Origin: a virus
Direction: 5' to 3' (one strand)
Virus record (IMG/VR): IMGVR_UViG_3300033148_007408
Coordinates: 38,656-102,655 of that record
Length of the DNA: 64,000 nt
The notes under the pieces were generated by a model. The model worked only from the letters and a program-made list of their open reading frames with translations, did not search any database and was not told the origin of the DNA. The position numbers and the translations under genes were made by a program. The first letter of the stretch is position 1, and every line of letters begins with the position of its first letter. Positions 8,751 through 64,000 of the stretch are shown here, one piece after another.

Positions 8751-8915
8751 ATGGCTAGAAAGAAGTATGATTATAAAATTCTTATCGTGAACTTTAAGAA
8801 ACAACACTATGACCTGTACGATTGGTTGAAAAAGTATTGTGATGACAACGGACTTACTATTTCTCATTTAGTGCGGGAAATAATAAGAGATTTCAAGGAT
8901 TCTAAGGGTGGATGA
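8751..8915 (+). CDS. Small ribbon-helix-helix (CopG/Arc-like) DNA-binding protein, 54 aa, absent from the ORF track
   Basis: AAGGAGG RBS; translates MARKKYDYKILIVNFKKQHYDLYDWLKKYCDDNGLTISHLVREIIRDFKDSKGG; strand-helix-helix pattern; similar to 20304-20486. Confidence 0.8.
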   Translation: MARKKYDYKILIVNFKKQHYDLYDWLKKYCDDNGLTISHLVREIIRDFKDSKGG

Positions 8916-10131
8916 AAAATTAGATATTAGAAGTTTCAGTTGGCTTAAACCCGATCTTTCATGGGCGTTTGTAATATACGAGTTGACAAACGCTTTTGAC
9001 AATCTTGGGTGTAATTCGATGGTCCTTTCTACAAACGGAATGGACGAATCTTATTTTGATACACCCAACAAACGAAACAAATCTATCGCTGCTCTTGAAC
9101 AATTTGGGCCGGGAAAGAAATCGGTATTTCTGGACTACTGTTATACGGTGGCTCCAAATTATTCAAAAAGATTTCTTCAAAACTCAAAAAATCGGGCGTG
9201 TGTGTATAACTACGAGACAACTATAATGCCCCCAGCGTGGAAGAGTTTGTATGACACTATCGACTATCACTTTCCCAGTTCTAATTTTTGTGCCGAGGTT
9301 TTTTATCGTAATGGGGTGCCGCTGGAGAAGATATTTGTTATACCTCATGGTGTGAATCAAAGAAAATTCAATAAAGATGTGCCTCCGATTAAATTGAGAA
9401 CCAAGAAGGCTTATAAGTTTCTTTGCGTTGCGGCGCCTCATTATCGAAAAAATCTGGATGTGTTGCTAGATGCATATTGTCAAGCGTTTACTGCTGATGA
9501 TAATGTATGTCTTGTACTGAAAACGAAGGTATATAAACACTCGGATGGGATTATTGGGAAAGACAATCCGAACGGCAGACAGTTATATGAGTTATGTTTG
9601 GGTGATTTGTTTAAACCGCTGATTAAAAAATATGGTAAAAAAATGCCTGAAATTGAAATACTGGGCGGGCGAGTGAAAAATCCCGCCAGTGTGTATAATT
9701 CGTGTAGTTGCCACGTTAGTACTACTGGCGGGGAAGGGTTTTTCCTCCCTGGGCTAGAGTCGCAATCTTGTGGCGGCGTTGATGGCAAAGGCATTGTAAA
9801 TATTGTTCCGCGATATTCTGGTCATCTTGATTTTATGAATGAGAATAATGCCCTTCTTATTAACACTAAATTACGCCATGCGACCGGGCAGGAGCAATAT
9901 TGGGGATATGATCCGAAAGCCGTAATAGGACAGCCGGATTTGAGGTACACTGTGGAGTTAATGAGAAAAGCCTATAAAGAACACGACTCATTAGTTCAAA
10001 AGTTTAAGCCAGAAATAGAACGCATCGTGAATAAGTTTTCGTGGGAAAACGCTGCACAAATGATGATAGACGTGTGCAATAAAAAAATAAACCATTATAT
10101 TCCGGACACTTACAATTACTGGCCAAAATAG
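8908..10131 (+). CDS. Glycosyltransferase, GT4 family
   Basis: VIPHGVN, RKNLDVLLDAY and GEGFFLPGLESQSCG (Ex7E) motifs. Confidence 0.9.
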   Translation: MDEKLDIRSFSWLKPDLSWAFVIYELTNAFDNLGCNSMVLSTNGMDESYFDTPNKRNKSIAALEQFGPGKKSVFLDYCYTVAPNYSKRFLQNSKNRACVYNYETTIMPPAWKSLYDTIDYHFPSSNFCAEVFYRNGVPLEKIFVIPHGVNQRKFNKDVPPIKLRTKKAYKFLCVAAPHYRKNLDVLLDAYCQAFTADDNVCLVLKTKVYKHSDGIIGKDNPNGRQLYELCLGDLFKPLIKKYGKKMPEIEILGGRVKNPASVYNSCSCHVSTTGGEGFFLPGLESQSCGGVDGKGIVNIVPRYSGHLDFMNENNALLINTKLRHATGQEQYWGYDPKAVIGQPDLRYTVELMRKAYKEHDSLVQKFKPEIERIVNKFSWENAAQMMIDVCNKKINHYIPDTYNYWPK

Positions 10132-10139
10132 GATAATAA

Positions 10140-10826
10140 ATGAACAAATCAACAGTCTCTATAGTTATTCCCGTTTATAACCAACTCAAAATGACGATCG
10201 CTTGTCTTAACGATCTCCTCAAAACCCCTATACCAACAGAAACAATAGTAATAGATGATGGCTCTAAACGCGAACCAATATCAAAAGCACTTCCTAAACT
10301 ATTTCCACAAGTTAAACTTCTCACCAACGATACAAACTTAGGATTCGCCAAAACTGTAAATAAAGGCATCAAAGCATCAACAGGAACCCACATACTTTTA
10401 CTCAATAACGACATTCGACTTCACAATCCCAACTTTCTACAAATAATGCTCGACAACATGAAAAAACGCAATTTAGACTTAACCGCTCCTAAAGGCGGAA
10501 GAATGTGCGAGAAAACTTGGGAATATCAACCCGGAGAAGCAACTAAAACTACGGACTCTTTTACTTTTCTGCCATTCTGGTGTTGTTTGATTAAAAGAGA
10601 AGTATTTGACAGGATAGGTTTTATAGACGAATCATATGGTAAAGGGTTCTGGGAGGATGTGACTTTCTGTCTAACCGCAAAAAAAGCAGGATTTAAGATG
10701 GGAATTACTGAAGGTACAGGCGTAGAGCATCTTTATCACAGGACTTTTAGAGCAGAGGGTTATGATTTAGCCAAAGAATACGAAGAGAAACGCAAAATAT
10801 TTCTGAAATTAGTGAAGAAAATATGA
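10140..10826 (+). CDS. Glycosyltransferase, GT2 family
   Basis: VSIVIPVYN, VIDDGS, NLGFAKTVNKG, LLNNDI, WEDV. Confidence 0.92.
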   Translation: MNKSTVSIVIPVYNQLKMTIACLNDLLKTPIPTETIVIDDGSKREPISKALPKLFPQVKLLTNDTNLGFAKTVNKGIKASTGTHILLLNNDIRLHNPNFLQIMLDNMKKRNLDLTAPKGGRMCEKTWEYQPGEATKTTDSFTFLPFWCCLIKREVFDRIGFIDESYGKGFWEDVTFCLTAKKAGFKMGITEGTGVEHLYHRTFRAEGYDLAKEYEEKRKIFLKLVKKI

Positions 10827-11215
10827 TTAGTTTATCGAATGAAACCACATCTTATATGAACCGTATGATGACTTATAGATACACGAACGATGTGTATTCT
10901 ATTTTTCCACCGACAATATATCAGCGTTATTTGGCACATGGAGAAGTTGGAGTTCTAAAATCACCAGGAAGGTATTTGACTAGAACCCATAATAATAACT
11001 GGGGAACAGTGATTACAGGGAAATATCCAAATAGGTATATGGTGAGTGTGGATGGAGTTAGTCCTGGGCTTTTATTGATGAAAATATTTTATATTTGCGG
11101 GATGTTTAATATTAAGCAGATATGGTGGGGATCAATGCCAGAGATTCAGTCTTTCGGAGACAAGTTTTTTACAAAATGCATGTGTTCTTTTATACTTGAA
11201 GGTGCCAGTGGTTAA
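10823..11215 (+). CDS. Hypothetical protein
   Basis: ATGA-coupled to the upstream gene; no recognisable motif. Confidence 0.55.
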   Translation: MISLSNETTSYMNRMMTYRYTNDVYSIFPPTIYQRYLAHGEVGVLKSPGRYLTRTHNNNWGTVITGKYPNRYMVSVDGVSPGLLLMKIFYICGMFNIKQIWWGSMPEIQSFGDKFFTKCMCSFILEGASG

Positions 11216-11507
11216 TTTTAATGTTTTGGTAATGAGAATGTCAAAAAACCGTGGGCTTGGGTTATACTGTAATAATATATCCCACTTGGTGCTTCGGTAT
11301 TTACATAAAAACTGCCAGAGTTTTACGAGAGAGCCTTTAACACAAGCCACAGAATATCGAATTGAGCAATATTGCGAGTCTATTTTAAACGAACTAGGGC
11401 GTTGTGGGATAATTAGAGAAAACCAGCATAGGGTTTGTGAGTTTGCTATATTTTCACACGAAATAACACCAAAAGAATATTATTGTCATTTTGCGAGGAA
11501 AACATGA
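11208..11507 (+). CDS. Hypothetical protein, tandem paralog 1
   Basis: Aligns end to end with 11504-11803 (YCNNxSxLVLxYLHKxCQSF; EFAIFxHEITPKEYYCxFAxKT). GTG11208 start chosen from the paralog alignment. Confidence 0.7.
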   Translation: MVNFNVLVMRMSKNRGLGLYCNNISHLVLRYLHKNCQSFTREPLTQATEYRIEQYCESILNELGRCGIIRENQHRVCEFAIFSHEITPKEYYCHFARKT

Positions 11508-11803
11508 ATAAATTTGATGTTTCGGTAATGAGAGTACCACACAATCTTGGGCTGTCGATTTATTGCAACAACGTATCTTACTTGGTGCTTCTATATTTAC
11601 ATAAAATTTGCCAGAGTTTTGTGGGAGTATGTTTAACGTCGGCAGTAGAACATGAAGTTAAGGCACGTTGTGAGTTTGTCTTAAGTGATTTATGGCATAG
11701 TGGGACAATTAGGGAGAACGAGTATATGATTTATGAGTTTGCTATATTTTTACACGAAATAACACCAAAAGAATATTATTGTTATTTTGCGAGTAAGACA
11801 TGA
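11504..11803 (+). CDS. Hypothetical protein, tandem paralog 2
   Basis: ATGA overlaps at both ends; paralog of 11208-11507. Confidence 0.7.
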   Translation: MNKFDVSVMRVPHNLGLSIYCNNVSYLVLLYLHKICQSFVGVCLTSAVEHEVKARCEFVLSDLWHSGTIRENEYMIYEFAIFLHEITPKEYYCYFASKT

Positions 11804-12624
11804 AAATCGATATTTGCATAACCTCATATAGAAACGCCGAAAAACTCAAAATGTGCTTAGAGTCGATAATAGAAAAGACCAAGTTTGTCGATTACCATAT
11901 TTATGTTTTGTTAAATGACCCAAATGAAGAAATGAAAAAAGTTATCCATGATTCAATTTTTATGGGCGATGTACAATTTACCGATCGCATTACTCCGGTT
12001 TTTAATGACAATAACAATGGTTCGTTTTCTAAAAATAATAATGAGTTAGTCGCAGAGGGCGACGGAGACCTAATTTTGTTTTTGAATGACGATATCGAGA
12101 TTCAACACGATTCTTGGTTATTGAACATGACTCAAGTAACGGACAACGACCCAAATATCGGCGTTGTGGGGGCTTTATTGCTATACCCTTCAAAAAAAAT
12201 TCAGCACGTCGGGGTGTTTTTTAGCGAACGAACCAACAATCTTCCCTTTCATATGTATTATCGCAAAAGCCCAAAAGAAGTTAAGGATTTCATATCTGTT
12301 CCTCGTTATTATCAGGCAGTAACGGGAGCTTGTATGTTAGTGAGAAGAAAAGATTTTGAGACATTGGGCGGGCTATGTAATGATTATTTCTATTGCTATG
12401 AAGACATACAATACTGTTTGGATGTTAGACATAAATTAAAAAAGAAATGTGTTTATACGCCCAATGCGGTTCTTATTCATCACGAAGGAATAAGCAGCTC
12501 TTCTAAAAATAACCCCCATCTACAAAAAAACATAGAAGCATTTAGGAAAAACTGTACGGGTAAATATTATAACGATTTAGAATTTTACCTATCTAATCCA
12601 AACTTCATGGTATACAATAAATGA
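11800..12624 (+). CDS. Glycosyltransferase, GT2 family
   Basis: FLNDDI, VVGALLLYP, AVTGACMLVRR, CYEDI. Confidence 0.92.
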   Translation: MKIDICITSYRNAEKLKMCLESIIEKTKFVDYHIYVLLNDPNEEMKKVIHDSIFMGDVQFTDRITPVFNDNNNGSFSKNNNELVAEGDGDLILFLNDDIEIQHDSWLLNMTQVTDNDPNIGVVGALLLYPSKKIQHVGVFFSERTNNLPFHMYYRKSPKEVKDFISVPRYYQAVTGACMLVRRKDFETLGGLCNDYFYCYEDIQYCLDVRHKLKKKCVYTPNAVLIHHEGISSSSKNNPHLQKNIEAFRKNCTGKYYNDLEFYLSNPNFMVYNK

Positions 12625-15185
12625 ACTCTGCTGGTGGCCCCGGATATAAATGGCGCGGTAAAAATATTCGTCTCATACAAAGGCGAAATATTGATTGCGT
12701 AACTATGCCACGAAAAGATTCTTGCGTGGTTTTAAGCGCCAAGATAAAAGCAAATACCATGTACCGCGTTAATATAACAGCGAAAAATGCCGGCGGAAAT
12801 GGTTTGGTTGCTGCGAGATTTTCTTCCGGAGAGTGTGGGGCATCACCGGCATATGTAGTATCAAAAGACTTTCATACTGTGCAGATAGAGGTTTGGGTAA
12901 AAAGTATAGTTTCAAAAGATACTACCCTAGAAGTATATCGTCCCCCAAAAGCAACTGGCAATATACTCGTCAGCAATGTTTCTTTTCATATGATTAAGAA
13001 AGTTAAACCCGCACCTATTAAAAAAATAGAGGATAAGGCTACAAAAAAACGAGTGCAAGAAATAACGGCGCGACAGAATAAGTTGGAACAAAAAGAACGC
13101 GTAGATAAATTGAAAAAAATATCCGAGGCGCGAAAAATAGGTATGTCGGTCGGAAATCAGTGGCAAGGAAAGAATATACGCACAGTTAATAAGTTTGGAT
13201 CCAGTTGTGCTAATATATCGGGCTCAGACTCAATTCTTTTATTGCCAGTTGTTGTAAAACCCGACTCAATATATCGTGTGGTTATTACGGCATCTAAAGC
13301 ATCAGCGTCTGGAAATGGCGAACTATTAATAAACTTTTCTGCCGGCCGAGGTTTTGATGGACCCTTGGCGACTTTTAAGGCAAATGGTATAATACTTCGT
13401 GACTATTCTCTCAATCTTCAAAGTCCAAAAGCAAAACCAAGCACACAAGTTTATTTAAGAGTGTGGCGGTCAAAATCTTCAGGTGCCAATATACTCATTA
13501 AAGATATTAGGTATTCTTATGTGAAAGAGGTCCAGAAACCAAAACCTAAAATTAGACCTCGACCCAAACCTCGAAGTAAAACAAAAAACAAGGAAGATAA
13601 AATAATGAAATTTCGACCATATGCAAAAATAAAATCTAGTGTGGCGAATATGGTGAATGAGGTTTTAATCACCGATGCACTTCAAGTTCCCAAGGTGAGC
13701 ATAATAACTCCAACACGAGATAATCTAAACTTGCTTTCGAAATGCCATAAAGCGTTAGGTGAAAATACTGCTTATCCGAGCTGGGAGTGGATAGTTGGAG
13801 ATAGCGATTCTACTGACGGCACTGTAGAGTTTATGCAAAATGTGAAACGAGACAATGTAAAGTTCATAGAAAGAGGAACTACGGACGGTTCATTTTCTTC
13901 TATAAACAATGAGCTAGTGGAACAATCAACGGGAGAATATGTGCTCTTTCTTAATGACGACACGGAACCTCAACCGTTTTGGCTTTACAATATGATGTCC
14001 AAGATTCATCGTCATCCGGAGATAGGGATAGTTGGGGCAAAATTATTATACAGTCCAGGCAGAATACAACACGCGGGAATAGCATTTATGAACGAGGGGC
14101 CAGGAAACTTGGGTAAATCTGTGTTGAAATCATTCCCCAAGGGCTTTGCCGAACACGATCGTTTTTATCAAGCAGTTACTGGTGCTTGTTTGTTAATGCG
14201 CCGTGAAGATTTTGAAGCAATTGGTGGGTTTGATTTGGAGTACTGGTTTTGCTACGATGATATGGCGCTGTGTATGAAAGTTAAACATCAATTAAAGAAA
14301 AAGATTCTATATGCGGCTAATGCGGAGGTGTTTCATCGAGAAAGCGTAACGCAAAACAAATTCAAGACGGGCGGAGAAAAACAAAAGGCGGGAATAGAAT
14401 ATTTTAAGAAGACATGGATGCCCAAAGCAGAAAAAGATTTCAATAAGTATATGAAATTAGTGGGAAAAAACAAGTATCCAGTTGACATTTCCTTCGTAAC
14501 TTGCGTAAATAACCTTCAGCAATACACCAATTATGTTGTGGGGTCTCTGTTTAGCAACAAAACCGGTAAAAATTATGAGATTATCCCTATTCTTAATTTC
14601 GGCAACAAATATTCAGCAGCACGAGCGTTAAATATTGGAATAGACAAAGCGAGGGGTAGTTTGATTATCCTAATACACCAAGATGTAATATTCCTCAAAG
14701 GGTGGGTTGAGATGTTATATGAACGGATTGCAGAAATAGAGAAAGAGGACAAGGGATGGGGTGTATTGGGGACAGCAGGAATAAACACAAAAGATGACAC
14801 AATAGGTATAGTTTATAATACCAAGGGAAGAGTTCAATGGCAATCCACTAGGAGAAAACGCATATGTTCTGTGCAAACAGTAGACGAGCATTGCATGATA
14901 ATACGAAAAAAATCCGGATTGAGATTTGATGAGGCCTTTAATGGCTGGCATATGTATGGGCCGGACATTTGTTTGACTGCGATCCAAAAGGGAATGACTA
15001 ATTATGGGATATTATGCCCTTTAATTCACGATTCCAAATCCACTAGTTTAATTTCAGGCAAAAAAGAGTTCATGAGATACTTAAATATGCTGAATACAAA
15101 GTGGGGATCTAAAATACCACTGATAAGAACGCCCACATCGATAATAAAAAAGAGAGTGGCGAGAACTTTTGTGAGGTTCAAATGA
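12621..15185 (+). CDS. Multidomain glycosyltransferase: two CBM-like beta-sandwich repeats, a GT2 domain and a second GT-A (Glyco_tranf_2_5-like) domain
   Basis: Duplicated N-terminal unit (WxGKNIR...YRVxITA...GNG); GT2 motifs VSIITPT, FLNDDT, AVTGACLL; C-terminal ISFVTCVNN, HQDV, VQTVDEHC, WHMYGPDICL. Confidence 0.85.
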   Translation: MNSAGGPGYKWRGKNIRLIQRRNIDCVTMPRKDSCVVLSAKIKANTMYRVNITAKNAGGNGLVAARFSSGECGASPAYVVSKDFHTVQIEVWVKSIVSKDTTLEVYRPPKATGNILVSNVSFHMIKKVKPAPIKKIEDKATKKRVQEITARQNKLEQKERVDKLKKISEARKIGMSVGNQWQGKNIRTVNKFGSSCANISGSDSILLLPVVVKPDSIYRVVITASKASASGNGELLINFSAGRGFDGPLATFKANGIILRDYSLNLQSPKAKPSTQVYLRVWRSKSSGANILIKDIRYSYVKEVQKPKPKIRPRPKPRSKTKNKEDKIMKFRPYAKIKSSVANMVNEVLITDALQVPKVSIITPTRDNLNLLSKCHKALGENTAYPSWEWIVGDSDSTDGTVEFMQNVKRDNVKFIERGTTDGSFSSINNELVEQSTGEYVLFLNDDTEPQPFWLYNMMSKIHRHPEIGIVGAKLLYSPGRIQHAGIAFMNEGPGNLGKSVLKSFPKGFAEHDRFYQAVTGACLLMRREDFEAIGGFDLEYWFCYDDMALCMKVKHQLKKKILYAANAEVFHRESVTQNKFKTGGEKQKAGIEYFKKTWMPKAEKDFNKYMKLVGKNKYPVDISFVTCVNNLQQYTNYVVGSLFSNKTGKNYEIIPILNFGNKYSAARALNIGIDKARGSLIILIHQDVIFLKGWVEMLYERIAEIEKEDKGWGVLGTAGINTKDDTIGIVYNTKGRVQWQSTRRKRICSVQTVDEHCMIIRKKSGLRFDEAFNGWHMYGPDICLTAIQKGMTNYGILCPLIHDSKSTSLISGKKEFMRYLNMLNTKWGSKIPLIRTPTSIIKKRVARTFVRFK

Positions 15186-52633: not shown

Positions 52634-52634
52634 T

Positions 52635-53735: not shown

Positions 53736-53736
53736 G

Positions 53737-54495: not shown

Positions 54496-54847
54496 TATAG
54501 ATGGGGTAATTTGCACTAATACATGGGGAAATTATGCAAAGGCGAAACCTCATTTAGAAATGATTGCTTTTATTAACAAATTACACGACGATGGAAATGA
54601 GATAATTTTTCATTCTGCTCGTGGGTTTGGAACATGCGGTGGTGTAATAAAAGATATAAACGCAAAATGGTATGATTTTACCGTGAAACAATTGTACGAT
54701 TGGGGTGTAAAATATAACTTTTTAACATTAGGAAAGCCAGACGGGCAAATATATGTAGATGACAAAGCATTTAGGGCGAATGGAAATACATGTGGCGATA
54801 TTAGTCGGCTTGAACTTTACATTGAAGGGTTGGATGCCAATGGTTAA
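54479..54847 (+). CDS. Small HAD-family phosphatase (capsule-biosynthesis type)
   Basis: FDIDGVIC, HSARG, GKP...YVDDKA. Confidence 0.88.
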   Translation: MKVVFDIDGVICTNTWGNYAKAKPHLEMIAFINKLHDDGNEIIFHSARGFGTCGGVIKDINAKWYDFTVKQLYDWGVKYNFLTLGKPDGQIYVDDKAFRANGNTCGDISRLELYIEGLDANG

Positions 54848-58033: not shown

Positions 58034-58071
58034 CAAAAACCGAAAATCAAAATGCCAAAAAGGAGGCAAGT

Positions 58072-58800
58072 GTGACAGAAATTATTGCGGAAATAGGCAT
58101 AAACTTCATGGGGAATATGGAAATTGCCAGAAAACTTATTGCAGATGCGACGGAGTGTGGTGCAGATATTGCAAAGTTTCAGTGGTATAGTTGTGATTCT
58201 CTTTTTGGCGATCCATCAAAAGACACATACAATCAAAAGATATATGAAGCAGTAAAGCCGTTTGAGCTTGATGAAAAAAAGATTGAACAACTTGTCAAAT
58301 GGTGTGAGTTGGAGGGTATAGAGTTTGCATGTAGTGTTTTCGACAAAGAAAGGTTCGAAACATTGGAAGATTTAGGTGTCTCGGTGCATAAAGTTGCCTC
58401 TCGTGTTTCAAAATATGATCGAGATTTGGCAGTCAAAATAATAGAAACGGGAAAACCCTGTTATGTTTCGTTGGGTTTTGGTGCTGAGCCATTTGATACA
58501 GAAAAATATCCCAAGGTTCGACATCTTCAGTGCGTCGCTAAATACCCGACTTGGAATGAAGATTTTGATATACCCAAATCATTCGAGGATTCTATTTATT
58601 ATGGACTATCTTCTCATGCGACAACTCCCTATCCGGCCATGGTTGCTGTTGCTCGCGGTGCAAAAGCAATTGAAGTACATTTTACTTTAAGCAAGAGTAT
58701 GGTTGCTTTGCCAGGTGGGTTTGATCATTTGTGCTCGTTGAATAAAGATGAACTTAAACAATTGGTAGATTTTGCCTATCATGCCGATCAAATTAAATAA
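58072..58800 (+). CDS. Nonulosonic acid synthase 4 (divergent, short NeuB family)
   Basis: AGGAGG RBS with GTG58072; IIAEIGINFMGN, AKFQ, HKVAS, CVAKYP, GLSSHA, IEVHFT. Confidence 0.88.
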   Translation: MTEIIAEIGINFMGNMEIARKLIADATECGADIAKFQWYSCDSLFGDPSKDTYNQKIYEAVKPFELDEKKIEQLVKWCELEGIEFACSVFDKERFETLEDLGVSVHKVASRVSKYDRDLAVKIIETGKPCYVSLGFGAEPFDTEKYPKVRHLQCVAKYPTWNEDFDIPKSFEDSIYYGLSSHATTPYPAMVAVARGAKAIEVHFTLSKSMVALPGGFDHLCSLNKDELKQLVDFAYHADQIK

Positions 58801-58819
58801 ATATAGCAATGGGTTTAAA

Positions 58820-59608
58820 ATGAGCACAGCATATTATATGTCCTATAACCTTCCGACGCCAGCAAGTTTGCGTGCTCGGTATGATGGGTATAGTGCGTTA
58901 ATTATCGGCACGGGACAATCAACAGAAAATCTTTTAAAATACAAATCGGAAATAAAAAAACATTTTGATATTGTTATTGGGTTGAATTATGCGACGAAAG
59001 ACTTTGAAGATGTTATGGATTTTCATATGGTCATGGAAATTCGACCAATCGATATGGCAACGGAAATGGCATTAAATTATAGGAAAGATTTGCCACGAAT
59101 ATTAAACTACAAATCCATAAAATTTTTTCCAAAAGATATGAATATAATCAAAGCAAGACGAGAACCTTTTTTTGGAACACCGAATATAACTAAATATAAA
59201 TTTAATGGAGTGGAGGGTCTATTAGAGTATCGAAAAGATGGGCGAAAACTTCATTATGGTACGGTTATGTTACAGGCATTACATTTTGCGTGTATACTTG
59301 GTTGTAAGGACATATATCTTATTGGCGCGGATTTGGCATTTAAGGGTGAGTTTGATCATTACTACAAAGATAAATTTTATCGGGAGCCAATTACAGTGTC
59401 CACAAGCCGAAGTCCACTAATTATGACCAAGTTGGATGGCGAAATGATTCCAACGACCCACGTGTTTAAAAAAAGTGCAAGGTATATTGATAGAATGATA
59501 ATACAACAGTGTAGACCCCGTGGGATTGAGGTTTATGATTTTTCGGAAGGTTTAATCAATCGAGCAATTAAAGTAGAAATCGATTCATTTTTTCAAGTTG
59601 GTCCATAA
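58820..59608 (+). CDS. Maf/DUF115-like putative nonulosonate transferase 3
   Basis: ALIIGTGQST, VIGLNY, GTVMLQALHFACILGCKDIYLIGADL, DHYY; close paralog of 47689. Start position uncertain. Confidence 0.8.
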   Translation: MSTAYYMSYNLPTPASLRARYDGYSALIIGTGQSTENLLKYKSEIKKHFDIVIGLNYATKDFEDVMDFHMVMEIRPIDMATEMALNYRKDLPRILNYKSIKFFPKDMNIIKARREPFFGTPNITKYKFNGVEGLLEYRKDGRKLHYGTVMLQALHFACILGCKDIYLIGADLAFKGEFDHYYKDKFYREPITVSTSRSPLIMTKLDGEMIPTTHVFKKSARYIDRMIIQQCRPRGIEVYDFSEGLINRAIKVEIDSFFQVGP

Positions 59609-59609
59609 T

Positions 59610-60209
59610 ATGGAAATTTCAGTAATCGTAACAAATTATAATTATGAAAGATTTCTCGCTAGATCAATTAGATCATTGATCTGTCAATCTTATAATAACG
59701 AAGAATACGAAATAATAGTTATAGATGACTATAGTACCGATAGTAGCAAAAAGATAATAGAATCATTTAGTGGACACATTAAATCAATATTTAACGATAA
59801 GAACCTTGGCCTTGCTACCAGTTGTAATAAGGTGATAAAACAAGCCCTCGGAAAATATGTTGTTAGGGTGGATGCTGATGACTATGTTGCTGTCGATTTT
59901 TTGAAAGTTCATCAATTATTTTTGGCCAACAATAAGTCTGATATGAATGCAACCAGTTCGGACTATCTTGAAGTTGACAGTGAAGAAAATATCATACAAA
60001 GACGTAGTGGCGTAACGTTTCCGATAGCGTGTGGGACAATGTATAAGACCGACGACATGCTGGAACTTGGATTATTCAATAAAGACCTGCCACGTGAAGA
60101 TGAGGACTTTAGATGTAGGTTTTTGAAGAGCGGAAGGCATATTTATAACATTCCAGTGCCGTTATATCGTTATTGCAAGCATGGTATGAATATGACATGT
60201 GGCTTATAG
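59610..60209 (+). CDS. Glycosyltransferase, GT2 family
   Basis: ISVIVTNYN, VIDDYSTD, RVDADD, EDED. Confidence 0.92.
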   Translation: MEISVIVTNYNYERFLARSIRSLICQSYNNEEYEIIVIDDYSTDSSKKIIESFSGHIKSIFNDKNLGLATSCNKVIKQALGKYVVRVDADDYVAVDFLKVHQLFLANNKSDMNATSSDYLEVDSEENIIQRRSGVTFPIACGTMYKTDDMLELGLFNKDLPREDEDFRCRFLKSGRHIYNIPVPLYRYCKHGMNMTCGL

Positions 60210-60224
60210 CACATTTGGAAAATT

Positions 60225-61115
60225 ATGACTAAATTTACTTATACTAAAACCAAAAACTTTCCCAATATTAAGTTTTTGGTAGGCTCTCGGCATTCCGGCT
60301 TGCTATATTTTGATGGAGAGGATTTTAAAAGAATTTATCCAAGATACAGGGTTTATGGAATAACGAAAGGTCGTCATGGATGGTGCGCCTATGTTAAAGA
60401 CCCGGGATCTAAAACTGGAACAATTGTGTCATTTAACATAGAGGACGATAATTTTTGTAATTTTAAGAACATTATATGCCCTGCGCCAAAGGATATACAT
60501 CAAATAGACTTTATAGGAAAAAGCCTAATATTAACCGATGTAAGATCCGGGTCGTTAATAGAATATAAAAATTTTTTGAAATTTACCCGTCCGCCCTTAA
60601 AAATAGTACATAAAATTGGCACACCGATGAAGCACTTTAACTCAATATATTTTTACAATAATCAAATATTGGTATTGGCACACAACCAATATGCGAAAAC
60701 CGAGCAAAAAAGTAAAGTGATTTATTTGAATAAAAGTTTTGACAAAGTTAAAAGATATAAGTCAAATGCTAAGTGCGGACACAATATATACCAAGACAAA
60801 TCTTGTATAATTGTATGTGACTCCTTGGGCGGCAATGTGCTATACAACAATAAACCAATATTGAAAAATATGGGTTTTGTGAGAGGTTTGTCTATTTCAG
60901 ATGACTACATACTAATCGGTTCATCAAAACAATCTGATGATGATAAAAATAGAATAAGTTTGGGGCATATTCACGTGTTTAATAGAAAATTTAAGAAGAT
61001 TGGTCGCATTTCTATTCCAAAAACTCAAATATATGAAATACGACGAGTGGATAGTATTGATTATTGCATGTCTAATGGTTCTAGCAAAAACAAGGTCCCT
61101 TTATATGTCAAATAA
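60225..61115 (+). CDS. Beta-propeller protein (DUF4915-like)
   Basis: DIHQI, HFNSI, GHNI, GFVRGL, LIGSS and IYEIR blade-like motifs. Confidence 0.55.
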   Translation: MTKFTYTKTKNFPNIKFLVGSRHSGLLYFDGEDFKRIYPRYRVYGITKGRHGWCAYVKDPGSKTGTIVSFNIEDDNFCNFKNIICPAPKDIHQIDFIGKSLILTDVRSGSLIEYKNFLKFTRPPLKIVHKIGTPMKHFNSIYFYNNQILVLAHNQYAKTEQKSKVIYLNKSFDKVKRYKSNAKCGHNIYQDKSCIIVCDSLGGNVLYNNKPILKNMGFVRGLSISDDYILIGSSKQSDDDKNRISLGHIHVFNRKFKKIGRISIPKTQIYEIRRVDSIDYCMSNGSSKNKVPLYVK

Positions 61116-61424
61116 TTTATACGAGTTTGGAAAATTATATCATGATTATTCAATTTTTGGCTTTGAGAGTCACCAAAAAGAGGATGTTTTTTTCATTATT
61201 GTGATTTGTTAGATGACACAGAGGAAGCAGTTAAAAGAATTATTGAGTTTGTTGGTGTTCCGCAACTGAAGAAATACGATATGGCGGAAAAAGAAATAAA
61301 AGAATTTGTGTCGAAAAAACTGCAACATTACAGATCAGAAGAAACGATTGAAGATATACAAGTTCGAAGTTTATACGATAGTTTGTTGAAACGTTGCTAC
61401 AATCACAAAATAGGTCGCACATGA
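61105..61424 (+). pseudogene. Truncated, frameshifted sulfotransferase-like C-terminal fragment
   Basis: A -1 shift at the T7 run (61187-61193) gives ...FHYCDLLDDTEEAVKRIIEFVG...EFVSKKLQHY, resembling the YEDLL..P...+.R+.EFLG motif; the N-terminal PAPS-binding part is absent. Confidence 0.55.
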
Positions 61425-62506
61425 AACAAATATTTATTTTTTCGGATTTATATCTTCCAACTTTTCCATTTCTTGAAGTTCCTCTTTATCAGAACTTAAA
61501 AGATCGCGGGTTGGATGTCAAATATGTGTTGCAGGCGGGAGATATACGACTTACGCTTCCACATCTTAAAAAAATCTATGAACCAATAACCACCATTGTT
61601 AAAAAACCAAAAAACATTCTTGCGGAAATGGACAAAAAAGATTTGTTGGTGTGTAGATTTGCATATAAGGATGTTGCCGGCAGTTTAATTGCGAAAGCAC
61701 GCAAAAAAAGAGTTATAGTGTTGGATCCCGCAGCAGTTGATATTGCATTTAGAGAAACTGGGGCGCAATATATGACGGTAAAAAGCCCGTGGATGAAGCG
61801 AAGAGTAATTAAAAAATTTCCCAAGAGAAAGAAATATATCTATACCACAGGCACATTGCATTTTGATATGGCTTGGGGCCTAGGAGATATTAATAAAGTA
61901 AAGTTTATGGAGTCATATGGCTTAAATCCGAATAAAAAATTGGCTATTTTGTGCAAGAGTAGCGCCGGAGAAGTAGGGCATCAGAAAGGGATAGACGCCG
62001 AATATAAGCAAATAGTGAATATAGTAAGAAAAAAATGCCCGGAGTGGGAGGTTTTGGTAAAGTTTCATCCCGTAGATCACTTGTCGGAATACGCCCCTAT
62101 GCCTGGTGTGATGAACAAAAACCTACATTATAAACATAGACCCTCATGGGAGATTTTATTTCCAGGGGGTGTAAATATATTAAAGCCGGAAGAAGGGTAT
62201 CTTGGATTTAAATGTGCCGATGTAATATTAAATGTTCGTTCTTCGATAGGAATGGAGTCGGTGCTTTTTCCTACTCCGCTTTTAAACATAAACTCGCATA
62301 AGTATTTGATAAATTGGCCCAAATCTAGCAATCCGAGCATAATGAAATTTATCAAGATGGAAAGTTTAAGTAGAGCACTTAATAACCATGAGTACAGTGT
62401 GGACATAGGTGCGTGTAGAAAACATGTGTTGGAGTATTGTGATCCGGTGGGAGACGGAAAGGCTTACAAGAGAATTGCTAAAATAATAGAAAACTTAATC
62501 CAATAG
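61421..62506 (+). CDS. GT-B-fold TagF/sialyltransferase-like putative transferase
   Basis: TGTLHFD, LVKFHP, ADVILNVRSSIGMES, GDGKAYKRI; similar to 41958. Confidence 0.65.
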   Translation: MKQIFIFSDLYLPTFPFLEVPLYQNLKDRGLDVKYVLQAGDIRLTLPHLKKIYEPITTIVKKPKNILAEMDKKDLLVCRFAYKDVAGSLIAKARKKRVIVLDPAAVDIAFRETGAQYMTVKSPWMKRRVIKKFPKRKKYIYTTGTLHFDMAWGLGDINKVKFMESYGLNPNKKLAILCKSSAGEVGHQKGIDAEYKQIVNIVRKKCPEWEVLVKFHPVDHLSEYAPMPGVMNKNLHYKHRPSWEILFPGGVNILKPEEGYLGFKCADVILNVRSSIGMESVLFPTPLLNINSHKYLINWPKSSNPSIMKFIKMESLSRALNNHEYSVDIGACRKHVLEYCDPVGDGKAYKRIAKIIENLIQ

Positions 62507-63514
62507 GCTTTTGTACAACCTTTTCCATTTTTCAGCTTGTATGTCGAGATTAAACTCTTTCTTTACTAGATCGTATCCCCATTGTCCAAACTCATCACAA
62601 ACTCTGGGGGTGTTGGAAAGGTAAAGTATGTATTTGGTTAGTTGAGTAATGTCTCCGGTTCTTATTAAATATCCATTTTTTCCGTGGTGGCATATTTCTG
62701 TTGCTTGACCTACTTTGGTGGATATTGTGGGTTTTTTCAGCATAGAGGCTTCAATAAGACCATTGCTAATACCGTGCGTTGCTGCCGGAACTACACATAA
62801 ATCAGAGCCGGCGATTAATTCGGGCACATTATCTACAAAGCCGGTGAAAATACAATTTTTTCCTAGAGGTTTTGCTAATTTAATCAATTCTGGTTTTATT
62901 TTTTCGTACCCGGCTTGATTTGGTCTATCCCCGGTGATTATTAGTTTTACACGAGGGTTTGATTTATTTGCTTGTATTGTGGCTTTAATTAGATCGTCCG
63001 CTTTTTGTCCTCGGCCCAAACGACTGCAAGGGTATATTACCACAAATCCATCTTTAAATGATTTTGCGGGTTCAGTGTTTTCGTTTAAGTTTGTTCCATT
63101 GTGTATGACTGTGATGGGGCCTGAATAAGATTTGCGTATTGCTGGAACTATTCCATGTGACGAGGAAACCAAATGAGTTACGCCGTCGTGGTCAGATTTA
63201 AGAGATCGTGGGCCTGCAATTCTCTCAATGATTGCGGGCGTTTTTGCTTTGAGCGCACAATTCTTGTATTGTGGTAGATTTCCGTATTGAAGTATATCTA
63301 TTTTGTTGGATTTTAGATAGTCGGTTATTTTGTTCCACTTTTCGCCCGAGTATGTGGTTTTTCCTATTTTTGCAAACTTTGGGTGGATGTCTGGGTTCCC
63401 TGTGGCTATAAAATGAAACTCAAAATGATTTTTGAGGTGGTTGGCTGTATTATAGATGAAAGTTTCCGTTCCGCCGATATGTAAAGATTGAATTATATAG
63501 CATATTTTGGTCAT
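62495..63514 (-). CDS. Glycosyltransferase, GT4 family
   Basis: GGAGG RBS before ATG63514; IGGTE, VIHNG, FTGFVDNV, GISNGLIEASMLKKP. Confidence 0.92.
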   Translation of the reverse strand: MTKICYIIQSLHIGGTETFIYNTANHLKNHFEFHFIATGNPDIHPKFAKIGKTTYSGEKWNKITDYLKSNKIDILQYGNLPQYKNCALKAKTPAIIERIAGPRSLKSDHDGVTHLVSSSHGIVPAIRKSYSGPITVIHNGTNLNENTEPAKSFKDGFVVIYPCSRLGRGQKADDLIKATIQANKSNPRVKLIITGDRPNQAGYEKIKPELIKLAKPLGKNCIFTGFVDNVPELIAGSDLCVVPAATHGISNGLIEASMLKKPTISTKVGQATEICHHGKNGYLIRTGDITQLTKYILYLSNTPRVCDEFGQWGYDLVKKEFNLDIQAEKWKRLYKSLLD

Positions 63515-63526
63515 CAATACCTCCAA

Positions 63527-63539
63527 TTTTATATTACAC
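63527..63539 (-). promoter_or_regulatory. Promoter-like motif class B (GTGTAATATAAAA)
   Basis: Identical to 24020-24032; immediately upstream of the RBS of the minus-strand GT4 gene. Confidence 0.6.
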
Positions 63540-63591
63540 ACCGCACGTAAAAAATATTTTTTATTTTTAACTGAAAAATTTTAATAATCGC

Positions 63592-63604
63592 GTATAATAT
63601 AAAC
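63592..63604 (+). promoter_or_regulatory. Promoter-like motif class B (GTATAATATAAAC)
   Basis: Identical to 8725-8737; upstream of ATG63638. Confidence 0.6.
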
Positions 63605-63637
63605 AGAAGGATTTTTCGACGCAACAAGGAGTTTTCG

Positions 63638-64000
63638 ATGAAGGTTAATATTATATGTGGTGATCGCGGTTGGATTTATAGCAAGTTTATTAAAGAAATG
63701 AAAAAATTCTCCGAACACGAAATATTACTAAACTCAAAAGAGAAATGTGATTGTGTTTATTTTTTACCCTACTATGAACAACGAAAAACTGACATTCCGT
63801 CAACTGGGTGGTGGTCCCATATGGAATCTAAGGATCCTATTAAATCCAAGTTTTTATCTTCTGCGCGTCAAGTAGATTATTGTATATCTCAGTCAAAAAA
63901 ATATGCCTCGGTGCTTGTGGCTAATGGAATTGAAAATGTGACACAAATAATGCCGGGTATTGATTTGGATGTCTATAAATTGCGCTCAACTTATAGAGTG
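63638..64000 (+). CDS. Glycosyltransferase, GT4-like, N-terminal part (runs off the window)
   Basis: AAGGAG RBS; MKVNIICGDRGWIY...DYCISQSKKY...IMPGIDLDVYK; open to the end of the window. Confidence 0.7.
   Translation, partial: MKVNIICGDRGWIYSKFIKEMKKFSEHEILLNSKEKCDCVYFLPYYEQRKTDIPSTGWWSHMESKDPIKSKFLSSARQVDYCISQSKKYASVLVANGIENVTQIMPGIDLDVYKLRSTYRV

Follow-up and report, generated by a model that had tools for sequence, protein, structure and literature searches.

The window analysed here, 64,000 nucleotides long, is the 3′ end (positions 38656–102655) of a 102,655-bp IMG/VR record, here called G000. Baseplate and fibre genes at its start are followed, from 8908 to the contig end, by about 45 sugar genes recognised by Pfam/NCBIfam, ESM Atlas and fold comparison, at least 22 of them putative transferases. 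An earlier note had described more than 40 sugar genes directly after virion-type structural genes, and both the number and the placement hold. Since the window ends where the contig ends, this glycan island is truncated on its downstream side; that side was read instead in the collinear relative G006. The features are listed below, single numbers being gene starts.

1–7312, + strand: distal baseplate/fibre genes (synteny with G001, G002, G003 and G006 at 35–63% amino acid identity)
to 4429, +: Laminin_G_3 protein of 2185 aa, the C-terminal 1475 aa inside the window (Pfam)
4527–6332, +: 601-aa ORF (fibre gene) of the fibre module
6374–7312, +: 312-aa ORF of the fibre module
7433–8704, +: free-standing GIY-YIG homing-type nuclease with several HTH domains (Pfam)
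8908–10131, +: first island gene, a GT-B (GT4-like) glycosyltransferase (ESM Atlas)
10140–25663, +: GT2-rich block (Pfam, paralogy; GT2 homologs at the same position in G002, G003 and G006)
10140, 11800, 12621, 15913, 17708, 19368, 21984, +: GT2 genes of the block (Pfam), that at 12621 a double GT2 of 854 aa
15182, 16752, +: LAGLIDADG nucleases interleaved in the block (Pfam)
20449, +: HNH-type ORF interleaved in the block
22825, +: DUF2334 (Pfam)
23414–23983, −: methyltransferase (Pfam)
24044, +: methyltransferase (Pfam)
24671, +: GT4 (Pfam)
25776–29727, +: small ORFs without assigned function, then the next three genes (Pfam)
27912, +: Methyltransf_24 gene (Pfam)
28515, +: thymidine kinase (Pfam)
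29176, +: HNH nuclease (Pfam)
29724–37459, +: nonulosonate module 1 (Pfam, NCBIfam; collinear in G006 at 43–60% identity; members by Pfam/NCBIfam)
29724, +: family-B GT-B
31025, +: HTH-fused PseB-like 4,6-dehydratase
32216, +: PseC-like aminotransferase
33430, +: SDR
34113, +: NeuB-1, without SAF domain
34934, +: PseG-like protein
35757, +: formyltransferase
36686, +: CMP-transferase-like protein
37474–51599, +: module 2 (Pfam, NCBIfam, paralogy; members by Pfam/NCBIfam unless noted)
37474, 39549, +: two CapR/zinc-finger HNH nucleases
38589, +: TagD/RfaE-like nucleotidyltransferase
39029, +: GNAT
40684, +: class-III aminotransferase
41958, +: BFO_1060/TagF-like transferase
43054–43983 and 43985–44416, +: B12-radical-SAM gene, frameshifted (split-gene and paralogy comparison)
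44461, +: SPASM radical-SAM
45402, +: family A, TagF/BFO_1060-like (TarL match for family A)
46595, +: family B (paralogy)
47689, +: Maf-like (matches the sole Maf-like gene of G006)
48471, +: B12-radical-SAM, intact
49855, +: NeuB-2, with SAF domain
50844, +: CMP-transferase-like protein
51584–57473, +: module 3 (Pfam, NCBIfam, paralogy)
51584, +: family B (paralogy)
52635, +: family A, TagF/BFO_1060-like (paralogy; TarL match for family A)
53737, +: Maf-like (profile/fold family)
54759, +: PseF-like CMP-transferase (Pfam/NCBIfam)
55478, +: pyruvyl transferase (Pfam/NCBIfam)
56634, +: NeuB-3 (best PDB match 6ncs)
57485–64000, mixed strands: module 4 and distal transferases (Pfam)
57485: GNAT (Pfam)
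58018: NeuB-4 (Pfam)
58772: Maf-like (AF2 model, Foldseek, VIA)
59598: GT2 (Pfam)
60225: 296-aa ORF without assigned family
61394: TagF/Epimerase_2-like GT-B (ESM Atlas)
62495–63541, −: GT4 (Pfam)
63638–64000: GT1-like ORF cut by the contig end (the G006 homolog carries Glycos_transf_1)

By class, the transferases comprise eight GT2, four GT4/GT1-like GT-B, four TagF/BFO_1060-like (41958, 45402, 52635, 61394), three ‘family B’ GT-B (29724, 46595, 51584) and three Maf-like proteins. Synthesis is represented by four NeuB proteins, four nucleotidyltransferases, PseB/PseC/PseG-like enzymes and one SDR, and tailoring by a formyltransferase, two GNATs, a class-III aminotransferase, three methyltransferases, a pyruvyl transferase and three radical-SAM genes, one of them split; DUF2334 is also present. 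The first island gene, blank in Pfam, scored 0.98 to mostly phage Glycos_transf_1 clusters in ESM Atlas, and its identity is 53–56% in G001, G002 and G006 and 30–32% in G003. Seven homing-type nucleases had been counted inside the island, taken to begin at 8751; seven there are, all free-standing (GIY-YIG at 7433, LAGLIDADG at 15182 and 16752, HNH-type at 20449, 29176, 37474 and 39549), but the first lies just before that start, and tblastn found no counterpart of it in G001, G002, G003 or G006. The thymidine kinase noticed among the sugar genes was located at 28515. It belongs to a stretch (genes 27912 to 29176) that looks like an inserted cassette, each of the three genes being without a match in G006. 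Segments 43054–45468, 46595–47680 and 48471–54495 have no collinear ortholog in G006, where matches are weak and at paralog level, and a single 940-aa ORF of G006 corresponds to the 601-aa and 312-aa ORFs of the fibre module.

None of the four NeuB proteins has lost the invariant positions Lys/Gln, His202, Glu221/His223 and Asp234. NeuB-3, whose best PDB match (6ncs) is a 290-aa, SAF-less NeuB, retains the His/Glu metal-site motifs, and every Pse-like pathway enzyme falls below the NCBIfam equivalog cut-offs for Pse. Because the four NeuB-type synthases are divergent and each comes with a nucleotidyltransferase and a tailoring set of its own, these soluble enzymes could convert UDP-GlcNAc-type precursors to up to four different CMP-activated nonulosonic acids, with tailoring that would span N-formyl, N-acetyl, amino, O-methyl, pyruvyl and radical-SAM/B12 chemistry.

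The Maf-like AF2 model (pLDDT 89) has the Maf glycosyltransferase 5mu5 as its best PDB match (Foldseek E 6.5e-8; VIA Z 18.2, rmsd 3.7 Å over 223 residues), followed by the CstII and ST8Sia sialyltransferases (Z 10–11), and the three paralogs (47689, 53737, 58772) are predicted to share their fold with the core of the Maf flagellin glycosyltransferase. The proteins are 250–280 aa long versus 632 aa for 5mu5, and the match spans 5mu5 residues 243–512, so that they correspond to the catalytic core alone, without the flanking acceptor-binding (flagellin-binding N-/C-terminal) domains of true Maf; lacking these, they could equally sialylate a glycan. The Maf-like profile and NeuB co-occur in G000 and G006, and neither is found in G001, G002 or G003, the informative absence being that in the complete G003, since G001 and G002 are partial and end at the island start. 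In the 289-kb contig Ga0105099_10000001, which holds structural and island parts together, a Maf-like ORF overlaps both its neighbours, at the stop codon of a 1681-aa repeat protein on one side and at the next ORF's start codon on the other. This ORF belongs to a giant-protein operon that in G000 lies directly upstream of the sheath gene. The giant proteins beside it matched no recognised family or fold, and we assume a virion role for them from their position. DUF115 and GT29 proteins also exist in the Mimiviridae member ChoanoV1 (BFVD).

The earlier note had seen no multi-pass product and had recognised no Wzx, Wzy or priming transferase, and both observations were borne out. In a hydrophobicity scan (Kyte-Doolittle, 19-aa window, threshold 1.6), no sense-strand ORF in 8751–64000 has two or more hydrophobic segments, the hits being two short antisense ORFs; the sole multi-segment protein of G000 sits in the tail module. 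Nor does any credible ORF of this kind occur in the relatives' island segments or over about 95 kb of G006. The priming transferase, Wzx and Wzy/ligase families (PF02397, PF00953, PF01943, PF04932) are absent from G000, G002, G006 and the complete 435-kb G003, with positive controls. G000 is a genome fragment (CheckV completeness 12%), so export genes could sit elsewhere in its genome. In G006 none was found beyond the island, within some 95 kb after the tail module; TubZ, UvsW, DnaB, PrkA/SpoVR and RNR follow instead.

The earlier note proposed a jumbo prokaryotic virus, and this is supported: the contig belongs to a jumbo or huge contractile-tailed phage. PHROGs profiles identify a tail sheath, a tube-like virion protein and gp25-like and gp6-like baseplate proteins in the upstream 38 kb of G000, and 23 IMG/VR relatives share the sheath, one of them (G003) a 435,004-bp genome that is 100% complete per CheckV. 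No tRNA, rRNA or other Rfam family was found on the whole contig, nor any cellular core gene. Tail part and island have a tetranucleotide correlation of 0.95, which gives no sign of a chimera, and carry homing nucleases of one family. The PseB-like protein shares 60–69% identity among phages versus at most 49% with any cellular homolog found. With the tail and baseplate genes upstream, the even composition, the PseB identities and the recurring junction described next, the island appears native to the phage.

A survey of relatives gave the new result that the island occupies a fixed locus, bordered by the fibre module on one side and a TubZ/UvsW/DnaB module on the other. The fibre-to-island junction and gene order are repeated in the independent assemblies G002, G003 and G006, every relative whose sequence spans the junction has the island tied to the structural module, and phage replication genes come after it in both G006 and G003. 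Collinear segments occur in about six further metagenomic populations, on contigs of up to 289 and 468 kb. Island size ranges from about 18 kb in G003, with GT2 genes only and no NeuB, through about 55 kb with three NeuB genes in the 206-kb relative G006, to at least 55 kb with four in G000. The fixed position combined with O-antigen-type variability suggests diversifying selection on an exposed glycan. Bacterial Pse/Leg O-antigen, capsule and S-layer loci (e.g. that of Tannerella forsythia, with its BFO_1060-type transferase) share these enzyme families, modularity and fixed-locus hypervariability; unlike them, the island has no priming phosphoglycosyltransferase, Wzx/Wzy, ABC transporter, ligase or oligosaccharyltransferase, nor any polytopic membrane protein.

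Very probably, then, the island is genuine: a nonulosonate and glycan system that the phages have inherited and that has no membrane components. To the whole reading, a membrane-free phage glycosylation island that decorates the phage's own virion proteins, with the acceptor inferred, we give a probability of about 0.5. Some 22 soluble transferases (GT2, GT4, TagF-like, a small new GT-B family and three ‘mini-Maf’ sialyltransferase-fold enzymes) would build glycans in the cytoplasm on an acceptor without a lipid link. The acceptors would most probably be the phage's own fibre, baseplate or other giant structural-type proteins, which would receive glycans before or during assembly, as flagellin does from Maf. 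The case for these candidate acceptors is circumstantial: the fibre-adjacent position, fixed across the lineage, the Maf-type fold, the co-occurrence of Maf and NeuB and, in one relative, the Maf-like gene within the giant-protein operon. Shielding, host mimicry or receptor interaction as the purpose is speculation.

Particles of chloroviruses, mimivirus and mycobacteriophages are glycosylated by virus-encoded enzymes. Virion glycosylation in mycobacteriophages is reported by Freeman et al. 2023 (Cell Host Microbe), as cited in PMC12619734 and PMC12801897. Like the island's phage, they are tailed phages encoding their own glycosyltransferases, whose action on structural proteins in the cytoplasm is there either demonstrated or supposed. 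They reportedly carry a handful of transferases and use host nucleotide sugars. The island differs in its 22 or more transferases and complete biosynthesis of unusual nine-carbon acidic sugars, and its use on particles is a prediction. The capsid glycans of chlorovirus PBCV-1 and the fibril glycans of mimivirus are products of autonomous, virus-encoded glycosylation from gene clusters. There too, nucleotide-sugar pathways for rare bacterial-type sugars accompany many soluble transferases and the clusters differ clade by clade; the glycan is placed on particle proteins, as is proposed for the island. The island also differs in belonging to a tailed phage of a prokaryotic host and in its nonulosonate sugars, and is larger than any mimivirus glycan cluster known to us.

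The main alternative, which we consider possible but rather unlikely, is that the island's enzymes assemble or cap a glycan on host undecaprenyl-phosphate-linked intermediates, which the host's priming transferase, flippase/ABC exporter and ligase would deliver to LPS, capsule, teichoic acid or S-layer, blocking superinfection or altering the infected-cell surface during a long latent period. Missing export genes do not alone rule out the use of host Und-P, Wzx or ABC machinery, and GT2/GT4 enzymes normally lengthen lipid-linked intermediates. Host-surface modification by way of host machinery is the standard view of the known exporter-less sugar clusters of jumbo phages and cyanophages (PMC7824862, PMC12801897). 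Those T4-like cyanophage and jumbo-phage ‘LPS’ clusters (Iyer et al. 2021, PMC7824862) are likewise polymorphic, sporadic sets of transferases and NDP-sugar enzymes; they have 8–22 genes (cyanophage S-SCSM2R has 13 transferases; PMC12801897), and small NeuB-containing clusters occur in the Kyanoviridae record MH319754 and the huge phage LR756508. The island, unlike them, combines Maf-like enzymes and four nonulosonate modules in a set of about 45 sugar genes, and is inherited clade-wide at a fixed locus beside fibre genes. TagF/BFO_1060-like, TagD-like, CsaB-like pyruvyl transferase and DUF2334 proteins are typical of cell-wall polymers, and the first three count against virion decoration. Changing gene content would fit an arms race with competing phages. 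Envelope remodelling is disfavoured by the lack of any priming transferase, flippase, polymerase or ligase family in the four genomes searched, by a number of transferases that suggests a whole glycan rather than a cap, by the constant tie to the structural module, by the Maf-like gene within a giant structural-type protein operon in one relative, and by island genes that are of an old phage lineage and not recent host acquisitions.

Another reading is that host proteins (flagellin, pilin or S-layer protein) are glycosylated in the cytoplasm with nonulosonates specified by the phage. This would alter receptors for competing, e.g. flagellotropic, phages and would need no membrane machinery, consistent with the absence of such genes. 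To our knowledge, Maf enzymes are recognised solely for transferring nonulosonates to flagellin in the cytoplasm, the structural match to them is strong, and the literature discusses nonulosonate type as possibly affecting susceptibility to flagellotropic phages. Like the Maf-dependent pseudaminic/legionaminic flagellin systems (Campylobacter, Helicobacter, Aeromonas, Magnetospirillum; 5mu5), the island has a cytoplasmic CMP-nonulosonate synthesis set of PseB/PseC/PseG/NeuB-family/CMP-transferase type and a transferase of Maf (DUF115/MptE-like, sialyltransferase-type) fold, for which lipid carrier and exporter are unneeded. It is, unlike them, phage-encoded, with pathway enzymes under the Pse cut-offs, four synthases and about 19 more transferases of other folds. 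We regard host-protein glycosylation as improbable: the mini-Maf proteins lack the flagellin-binding domains, no flagellar genes lie nearby, the fibre-adjacent position is left unexplained, and 55 kb with 22 transferases is an investment hard to justify.

Still less probable is DNA hypermodification, in which glycans on modified pyrimidines would protect against restriction; T4, RB69 and metavirome clusters (Pyle et al.) are the precedents. DNA is a known substrate of phage GT-A and GT-B enzymes, such clusters can adjoin structural genes and nucleases (bioRxiv 10.1101/2023.12.21.572611; PMC13326640), and the island includes a thymidine kinase and several methyltransferases. However, the kinase lies in the cassette missing from G006, and the methyltransferases resemble sugar O-methyltransferases (CmcI/rhamnosyl type). 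Known routes depend on either a hydroxymethylase/hydroxylase of the ThyA family or a 5mYOX (TET/JBP) enzyme, usually encoded in one cluster with the transferase; PF00303 was not found in G000, G002, G006 or the complete G003 (control positive), and a PF12851 search, a weak test with a silent control, gave no match. Known DNA glycans, moreover, consist of one to three sugars (hexose, HexNAc, heptose or arabinose) and contain no nonulosonates. That cellular DNA was misjoined to a phage contig, or that a cellular locus lies beside a prophage or tailocin, is scarcely credible: the island resembles a cellular surface-glycan locus at first sight and the nearest relative, G001, is classed as ‘provirus’ in IMG/VR, but the repeated junction, the segments in other metagenome contigs, the 289-kb contig with both parts, the replication genes beyond the island, the uniform composition and the shared nuclease family all argue against it.

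In favour of virion decoration, two promoter-like motifs of G000 are common to structural genes and island units: motif A stands before the sheath gene and also before that for HTH-PseB, while motif B stands before both the fibre gene (4527) and the island's first gene (8908). Against it, neither is conserved in G006, where an extended −10 element also stands ahead of PrkA, a non-structural gene.

The window covers the final 64 kb of a 102,655-bp IMG/VR record (G000) that is classed as linear with a CheckV completeness of 12%, and because window and contig end together, the sugar-gene island runs into the contig end. The rest of the record carries the following genes:

Upstream 38 kb of G000: tail sheath protein, 863 aa (PHROG 2839)
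Upstream 38 kb of G000: tube-like virion protein
Upstream 38 kb of G000: gp25-like baseplate protein
Upstream 38 kb of G000: gp6-like wedge protein, 1068 aa
Upstream 38 kb of G000: HNH nuclease and endonuclease VII-like nuclease

Genes of G000 lie close together on a single strand, many of them preceded by AGGAGG-type ribosome-binding sites, and tetranucleotide usage in the tail part and the island is correlated at 0.95. Across the entire contig Rfam recognised no tRNA, rRNA or other family. The sheath retrieved 23 IMG/VR relatives at 40–65% identity; the relatives compared here include G003, a 435,004-bp genome rated 100% complete by CheckV, and two partial contigs of 96 and 162 kb (G001 and G002). 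None of 50,697 phage records matched, either by megablast of window positions 1–20000 or by tblastn of the sheath; the collection thus contains no sequenced isolate of the lineage, and we know of no cultured member of the clade. Sheath and baseplate genes, huge relatives and the lack of an isolate match thus identify G000 as a fragment of a huge contractile-tailed phage from an uncultured lineage. TerL_ATPase (PF03354) was not found on the 102,655-bp fragment, which is too partial for this to be informative. The CheckV values of 12% for 102.7 kb (G000) and 25% for 206.5 kb (the relative G006) would imply genomes larger than 800 kb; nonulosonate-free relatives are about 400–435 kb, and one metagenome contig of a relative is as long as 468 kb. 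Perhaps the estimate is unreliable, or perhaps genomes of the nonulosonate-bearing subclade are exceptionally large.

Annotation of positions 8908–64000 with Pfam, NCBIfam, ESM Atlas and two AlphaFold models gave about 22 putative transferases and about 24 biosynthesis and tailoring genes, in agreement with the earlier note, which had described a sugar-gene island following virion genes:

8908, 24671, 62495 (minus strand) and 63638 (cut by the contig end): four GT4/GT1-like GT-B transferases
41958, 45402, 52635 and 61394: four TagF/BFO_1060/Epimerase_2-like GT-B transferases (family A includes 45402 and 52635)
29724, 46595 and 51584: three members of a small unnamed GT-B family (family B)
47689, 53737 and 58772: three Maf-like genes
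Island: eight GT2 genes, one a double GT2 of 854 aa
34113, 49855, 56634 and 58018: four NeuB-family synthases (NeuB-1 to NeuB-4)
36686, 38589, 50844 and 54759: four nucleotidyltransferases
Island: HTH-fused PseB-like dehydratase, PseC-like aminotransferase, SDR and PseG-like protein
Island: ArnA/Fmt-like formyltransferase, two GNATs and a class-III aminotransferase
Island: three methyltransferases, a DUF2334 protein and a pyruvyl transferase
Island: two B12-radical-SAM genes and one SPASM radical-SAM gene
28515: thymidine kinase, outside both counts

All-against-all BLASTP showed a recurring cassette in which family A, family B and a Maf-like gene lie near a NeuB and a nucleotidyltransferase gene. 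One B12-radical-SAM gene (43054–44416) is split by a frameshift near 43,950–43,985; its pieces (309 and 143 aa) correspond to residues 1–301 and 315–453 of the intact paralog at 48471–49832, at 54–59% identity.

The main new result is that the island belongs to the phage and occupies one fixed, conserved locus across the clade. With tblastn, synteny with G001, G002 and G003 extends over the whole run of tail and baseplate genes and includes the first island gene (8908, GT4-like), and a GT2 gene immediately follows the 8908 homolog in G002 and G003. In the complete genome G003, which has neither a NeuB nor a Maf-like gene, seven GT2 domains cluster directly after the fibre genes, and the order is fibre module, an island of about 18 kb, then TubZ, UvsW, DnaB and RNR. 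The 206,495-bp relative G006, with a sheath 63% identical to that of G000, has a collinear island of about 55 kb at 43–65% amino-acid identity. Common to both are the HTH-PseB fusion, NeuB-1, NeuB-3, NeuB-4, the Maf-like gene, the PseF-like gene, the pyruvyl transferase and the distal GT2 and GT4 genes. Past the equivalent of the window end, G006 continues for about 10 kb with more sugar genes (GT1, saccharopine-dehydrogenase-like, epimerase/dehydratase, UDP-glucose dehydrogenase and NTP-transferase), followed by a TubZ/PhuZ-like tubulin and UvsW- and DnaB-type helicases, then PrkA/DUF444/SpoVR, ribonucleotide reductase and a PIN-PhoH protein. Collinear island segments at 40–69% identity were found in about six further populations by a metagenome scan with the Maf-like profile, on contigs that include Ga0105099_10000001 (289 kb), Ga0208454_1000005 (468 kb) and one of 76 kb. 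The PseB-like protein is 60–69% identical among phages, whereas its identity to the cellular homologs found, which are scattered over many phyla, does not exceed 49%; this difference argues that the island is old in the phage lineage and neither a recent capture nor a chimera. The contigs of G001 and G002, the closest relatives, both stop 1–2 kb past the 8908 homolog, where the variable island starts, which suggests that assemblies break at the start of the variable region and that it is heterogeneous at the strain level.

The G006 island lacks the thymidine kinase cassette, the radical-SAM/NeuB-2 block with its duplicated cassettes, and a counterpart at the corresponding position of any of the seven homing-type nucleases of the window:

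7433: GIY-YIG nuclease, free-standing
15182 and 16752: LAGLIDADG nucleases, free-standing
20449, 29176, 37474 and 39549: HNH-type nucleases, free-standing

Nucleases, thymidine kinase cassette and radical-SAM/NeuB-2 block alike are peculiar to the phage of the window, which gained them by insertion or duplication. We call the nucleases free-standing because Rfam recognised no group I intron around them on the whole contig. The earlier note had placed seven such genes in the island; the number stands, although the GIY-YIG gene lies just before the island start it had claimed. One HNH domain family is common to 20449, 37474, 39549 and a further homing-type nuclease gene outside the window (G000 6821–7399). 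The products of 37474 and 39549, which flank a two-gene cassette, are 54% identical, and HNH relatives of both occur in islands of other relatives. The 512-aa ORF at 20449–21987 combines HNH-repeat and HNH nuclease parts with a weak N-terminal FolD-like fragment (E 2e-5, below cut-off) and has no counterpart in G006. FolD is a THF dehydrogenase/cyclohydrolase; possibly a nuclease gene disrupted a folate enzyme that had supplied the formyltransferase, leaving this ORF as its remnant. With an 18-kb and a 55-kb version in the same place, the clade offers a natural experiment on island growth, which here involved duplication of transferase/Maf/NeuB cassettes and colonisation by homing nucleases.

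None of the pathway enzymes reached its NCBIfam equivalog cut-off. The PseB-like protein (31025) scored 330.5 bits with TIGR03589, its best family, against a cut-off of 407.75, covering positions 3–316 of 324. Corresponding values were 293 against 423.5 for the PseC-like protein (an ArnB-type model scored slightly higher), 41.6 against 153.6 for the PseG-like protein and 149.6 against 205.7 for the PseF-like protein (54759); we do not assign the island enzymes to the equivalogs of the Pse pathway. All four synthases matched PF03102, the NeuB TIM-barrel, with E-values of 7e-27 to 2e-70, and K37, Q39, H202, E221, H223 and D234, at catalytic, metal or substrate positions, are invariant among them. 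Because each scored higher with NeuB_NnaB (TIGR03569) than with PseI (TIGR03586), below both cut-offs, we call them NeuB-family nonulosonate synthases and their modules nonulosonate modules, and do not assign pseudaminic acid. A SAF/antifreeze-like C-terminal domain is present only in NeuB-2; the other three are 260–279 aa long, and their best PDB match is 6ncs, a solved 290-aa NeuB that likewise has no SAF domain. The formyl, acetyl, amino, methyl, pyruvyl and radical-SAM enzyme families predict unusual derivatives. NeuB homologs are rare in phage records: only three of the 50,697 matched NeuB-3, in small clusters of a Kyanoviridae record and a 484-kb huge phage, and a few IMG/VR contigs carry two NeuB genes with an SDR. 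The literature searched contained no report of a phage-encoded pseudaminic, legionaminic or multi-nonulosonate pathway, or of nonulosonate on virions. The PseB-like dehydratase (31025–32215) carries at its N-terminus a MerR/excisionase-type HTH (residues 7–52), and the fusion is kept in G006 (60% identity, residues 2–388) and Ga0105099 (69% over 388 aa). Among the 80 closest cellular homologs almost all begin only at about residue 60–70 and have no HTH, a domain that may have a regulatory or DNA-tethering role.

The earlier note had seen no multi-pass product in the island and had recognised neither Wzx/Wzy nor a priming transferase. Both observations were borne out. In a Kyte-Doolittle scan, a crude method, no sense-strand island ORF had two or more hydrophobic segments, and the sole multi-segment protein on the contig was a 676-aa protein of the tail module. 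Priming phosphoglycosyltransferases (Bac_transf PF02397; WecA/MraY PF00953), Wzx (Polysacc_synt, PF01943) and Wzy_C/ligase (PF04932) were absent from G000, G006, G002 and the complete G003 in searches that matched the control genomes. Export genes might also have lain just beyond the window, a point raised in the same note; in collinear G006 about 95 kb held no credible polytopic ORF by hydropathy, and in the island segments of relatives the only multi-segment ORFs were short antisense or tiny ones. No ORF had the size and hydrophobicity of a transporter, ABC-2 permeases (ABC2_membrane) being covered by this crude hydropathy scan. With no priming, flippase, polymerase or ligase family found, the island is not a member of the export-dependent polysaccharide loci (Wzx/Wzy, ABC or synthase). 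We put at 0.85 to 0.9 the probability that it is genuine, a system for nonulosonates and glycans that is inherited by the phages and has no membrane components.

Among the transferases with Maf-like, family B and family A members (TRANSFERASES), the Maf-like proteins matched PF01973 (DUF115/MptE-like) weakly (E 1e-5, below cut-off), and precomputed Pfam annotation places this domain on many of their homologs. PDB sequence searches with the Maf-like and family B profiles gave no matches. The AF2 model of the Maf-like protein (pLDDT 89) had as its best PDB match the Magnetospirillum Maf glycosyltransferase 5mu5 (Foldseek E 6.5e-8), with a VIA Z of 18.2 and an rmsd of 3.7 Å over 223 residues, covering Maf residues 243–512. 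Next came MptE-type HPPK (Z 12) and the sialyltransferases CstII, ST8Sia and ST3Gal (Z 9–11). By this fold match the Maf-like proteins have the central DUF115/MptE-like, sialyltransferase-type catalytic domain. They are "mini-Maf" cores of 252–278 aa, against 632 aa for Maf 5mu5. A full Maf has about 600 aa, N- and C-terminal flanking domains and flagellin as its acceptor; the mini-Mafs have no flanking domains, and Pfam and PHROGs found no flagellar genes on the contig. Other uncultured phages and a mimivirid have similar mini-Maf proteins. In this lineage the Maf-like profile was present only where NeuB was present, and only G003 is an informative absence, since G001 and G002 are partial and end at the island start. 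Family B is modelled as a generic GT-B fold, matched by BshA, TagF, PglA and NeuC at TM 0.5–0.6, and is small, with only 41 representative clusters matching at E <1e-30 in a set of 1.84 billion proteins; its members could be transferases or NDP-sugar hydrolases. Family A and the BFO_1060-like genes match TarL.

That the island glycosylates virions had been proposed in the earlier note. We find the proposal partly supported: the phage-inherited nonulosonate island without membrane genes is highly probable; that the acceptors are the phage's own virion proteins we infer from genes, and we give it even odds. In its favour, the island is attached to the fibre module, on the same strand, in every relative covering the junction; it encodes no membrane step; those relatives of the Maf-like enzymes that have been characterised, to our knowledge, all glycosylate protein in the cytoplasm; a Maf-like ORF lies within the giant-protein operon of the 289-kb relative; and two intergenic motifs are common to structural genes and island units in G000. 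Against it, the shared motifs are not conserved in G006, the giant proteins belong to no recognised family, the mini-Mafs have no acceptor-binding domains, and several island families are typical of cell-wall polymers. A bolder reading, which we hold tentatively and at somewhat less than even odds, is a huge-phage clade (contigs to 468 kb) with an O-antigen-like hypervariable "serotype" locus for its own particle. Here a cytoplasmic, lipid-free pathway would add complex glycans to giant proteins of the fibre or baseplate, and minimal Maf-type enzymes would install up to four different nonulosonic acids as caps. The chemistry of some of these acids could be new, with C-methylation by B12-radical-SAM enzymes, N-formylation or pyruvylation as examples.

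The rival reading is that island products remodel the host surface, as sugar clusters of jumbo phages and cyanophages have been interpreted, namely as modification against superinfection (PMC7824862; PMC12801897). Even then, this would be the largest such phage cluster found; 13 glycosyltransferases were considered possibly the highest number in a marine phage (PMC12801897), and four core glycosyltransferase groups are described for the "moraphage" lineage (PMC12619734). Glycosylation of phage DNA is unlikely, since the ThyA-family domain PF00303 was absent from four records including the complete G003 in a search whose control matched, Pfam scans of the island contained neither the ThyA-family nor the TET/JBP (5mYOX) enzymes of phage DNA hypermodification clusters, G006 has no counterpart of the cassette that includes the thymidine kinase, a search for TET/JBP (5mYOX, PF12851) gave no match (a weak test, its positive control being silent too), and known DNA glycans are short and are not nonulosonates (PMC13326640; bioRxiv 10.1101/2023.12.21.572611).

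Judged by its genes, the island would work like a combination of Maf-type cytoplasmic protein glycosylation and the autonomous glycosylation of giant viruses and mycobacteriophages. The bolder reading of a particle "serotype" locus, if true, would make this the largest glycosylation system known in a phage and, as far as we found, the first nonulosonate-coated particle built wholly by virus genes. Glycosylated particles would show that large autonomous glycosylation evolves in tailed phages as well as in giant eukaryotic viruses, and sialic-acid-like sugars would be part of phage surface biology, with a bearing on adsorption, on how the largest particles stay stable and on how they escape recognition by hosts or grazers. 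Many soluble enzymes are also packed into the island (four divergent nonulosonate synthases, of which three have no SAF, Maf-type transferases of minimal size, a small GT-B family that is new, and tailoring enzymes of the radical-SAM type) and could serve to make and transfer rare nonulosonates.

In Ga0105099_10000001 a Maf-like ORF overlaps at one end with the stop codon of a gene for a 1681-aa repeat protein and at the other with the start codon of the following ORF, inside a giant-protein operon that in G000 sits just upstream of the sheath gene, with homologs at G000 14–2257, 2383–3360, 3372–6446 and 7396–12399. The first ORF of G000 encodes 747 aa, the C-terminal, repeat-rich part of a protein that has ~1680 aa. 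The products of 3372–6446 (1024 aa) and 7396–12399 (1667 aa) contain about 19% Ser+Thr and have in common a 158-aa N-terminal domain at 67% identity, the only part of them conserved in G003; fibre paralogs often have a common N-terminal anchor. The Ser/Thr content of the structural proteins was not striking, and three upstream proteins of G000, giant or without known family, gave nothing usable in PDB sequence searches and nothing in PHROGs. In G006 the region 21,000–38,800 downstream of the island, with the tubulin, PrkA/DUF444/SpoVR and PIN-PhoH genes, also encodes two Laminin_G_3 giants of 1680 and 3634 aa, the larger with a weak match to a trans-sialidase C-terminal lectin domain.

The two intergenic motifs of G000 are promoter-like, and because neither is conserved in G006 we make no claim of a late-gene programme. 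The motif TCTATCAATAAT(N5-8)ATAGT occurs four times, always between genes (G000 13726; window 7395, 20265 and 30916), preceding the sheath gene, the GIY-YIG gene, 20304/20449 and the HTH-PseB gene. The motif TGTATAATATAA, which by its sequence resembles an extended -10 element or a T4 late promoter, is intergenic at window 4469, 8726 and 63593, before the fibre gene at 4527, the first island gene at 8908 and the last ORF. At the fibre gene, ORFs 4527–6332 and 6374–7312 are in different frames, G006 has one 940-aa ORF, and in G001 and G002 the matches to both ORFs are in the same frame. An error in sequencing, a pseudogene or a programmed frameshift could each account for the change of frame. 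From about 6305 the second frame is open, and it encodes a DINRSGEIDADDV motif that is dockerin/EF-hand-like.
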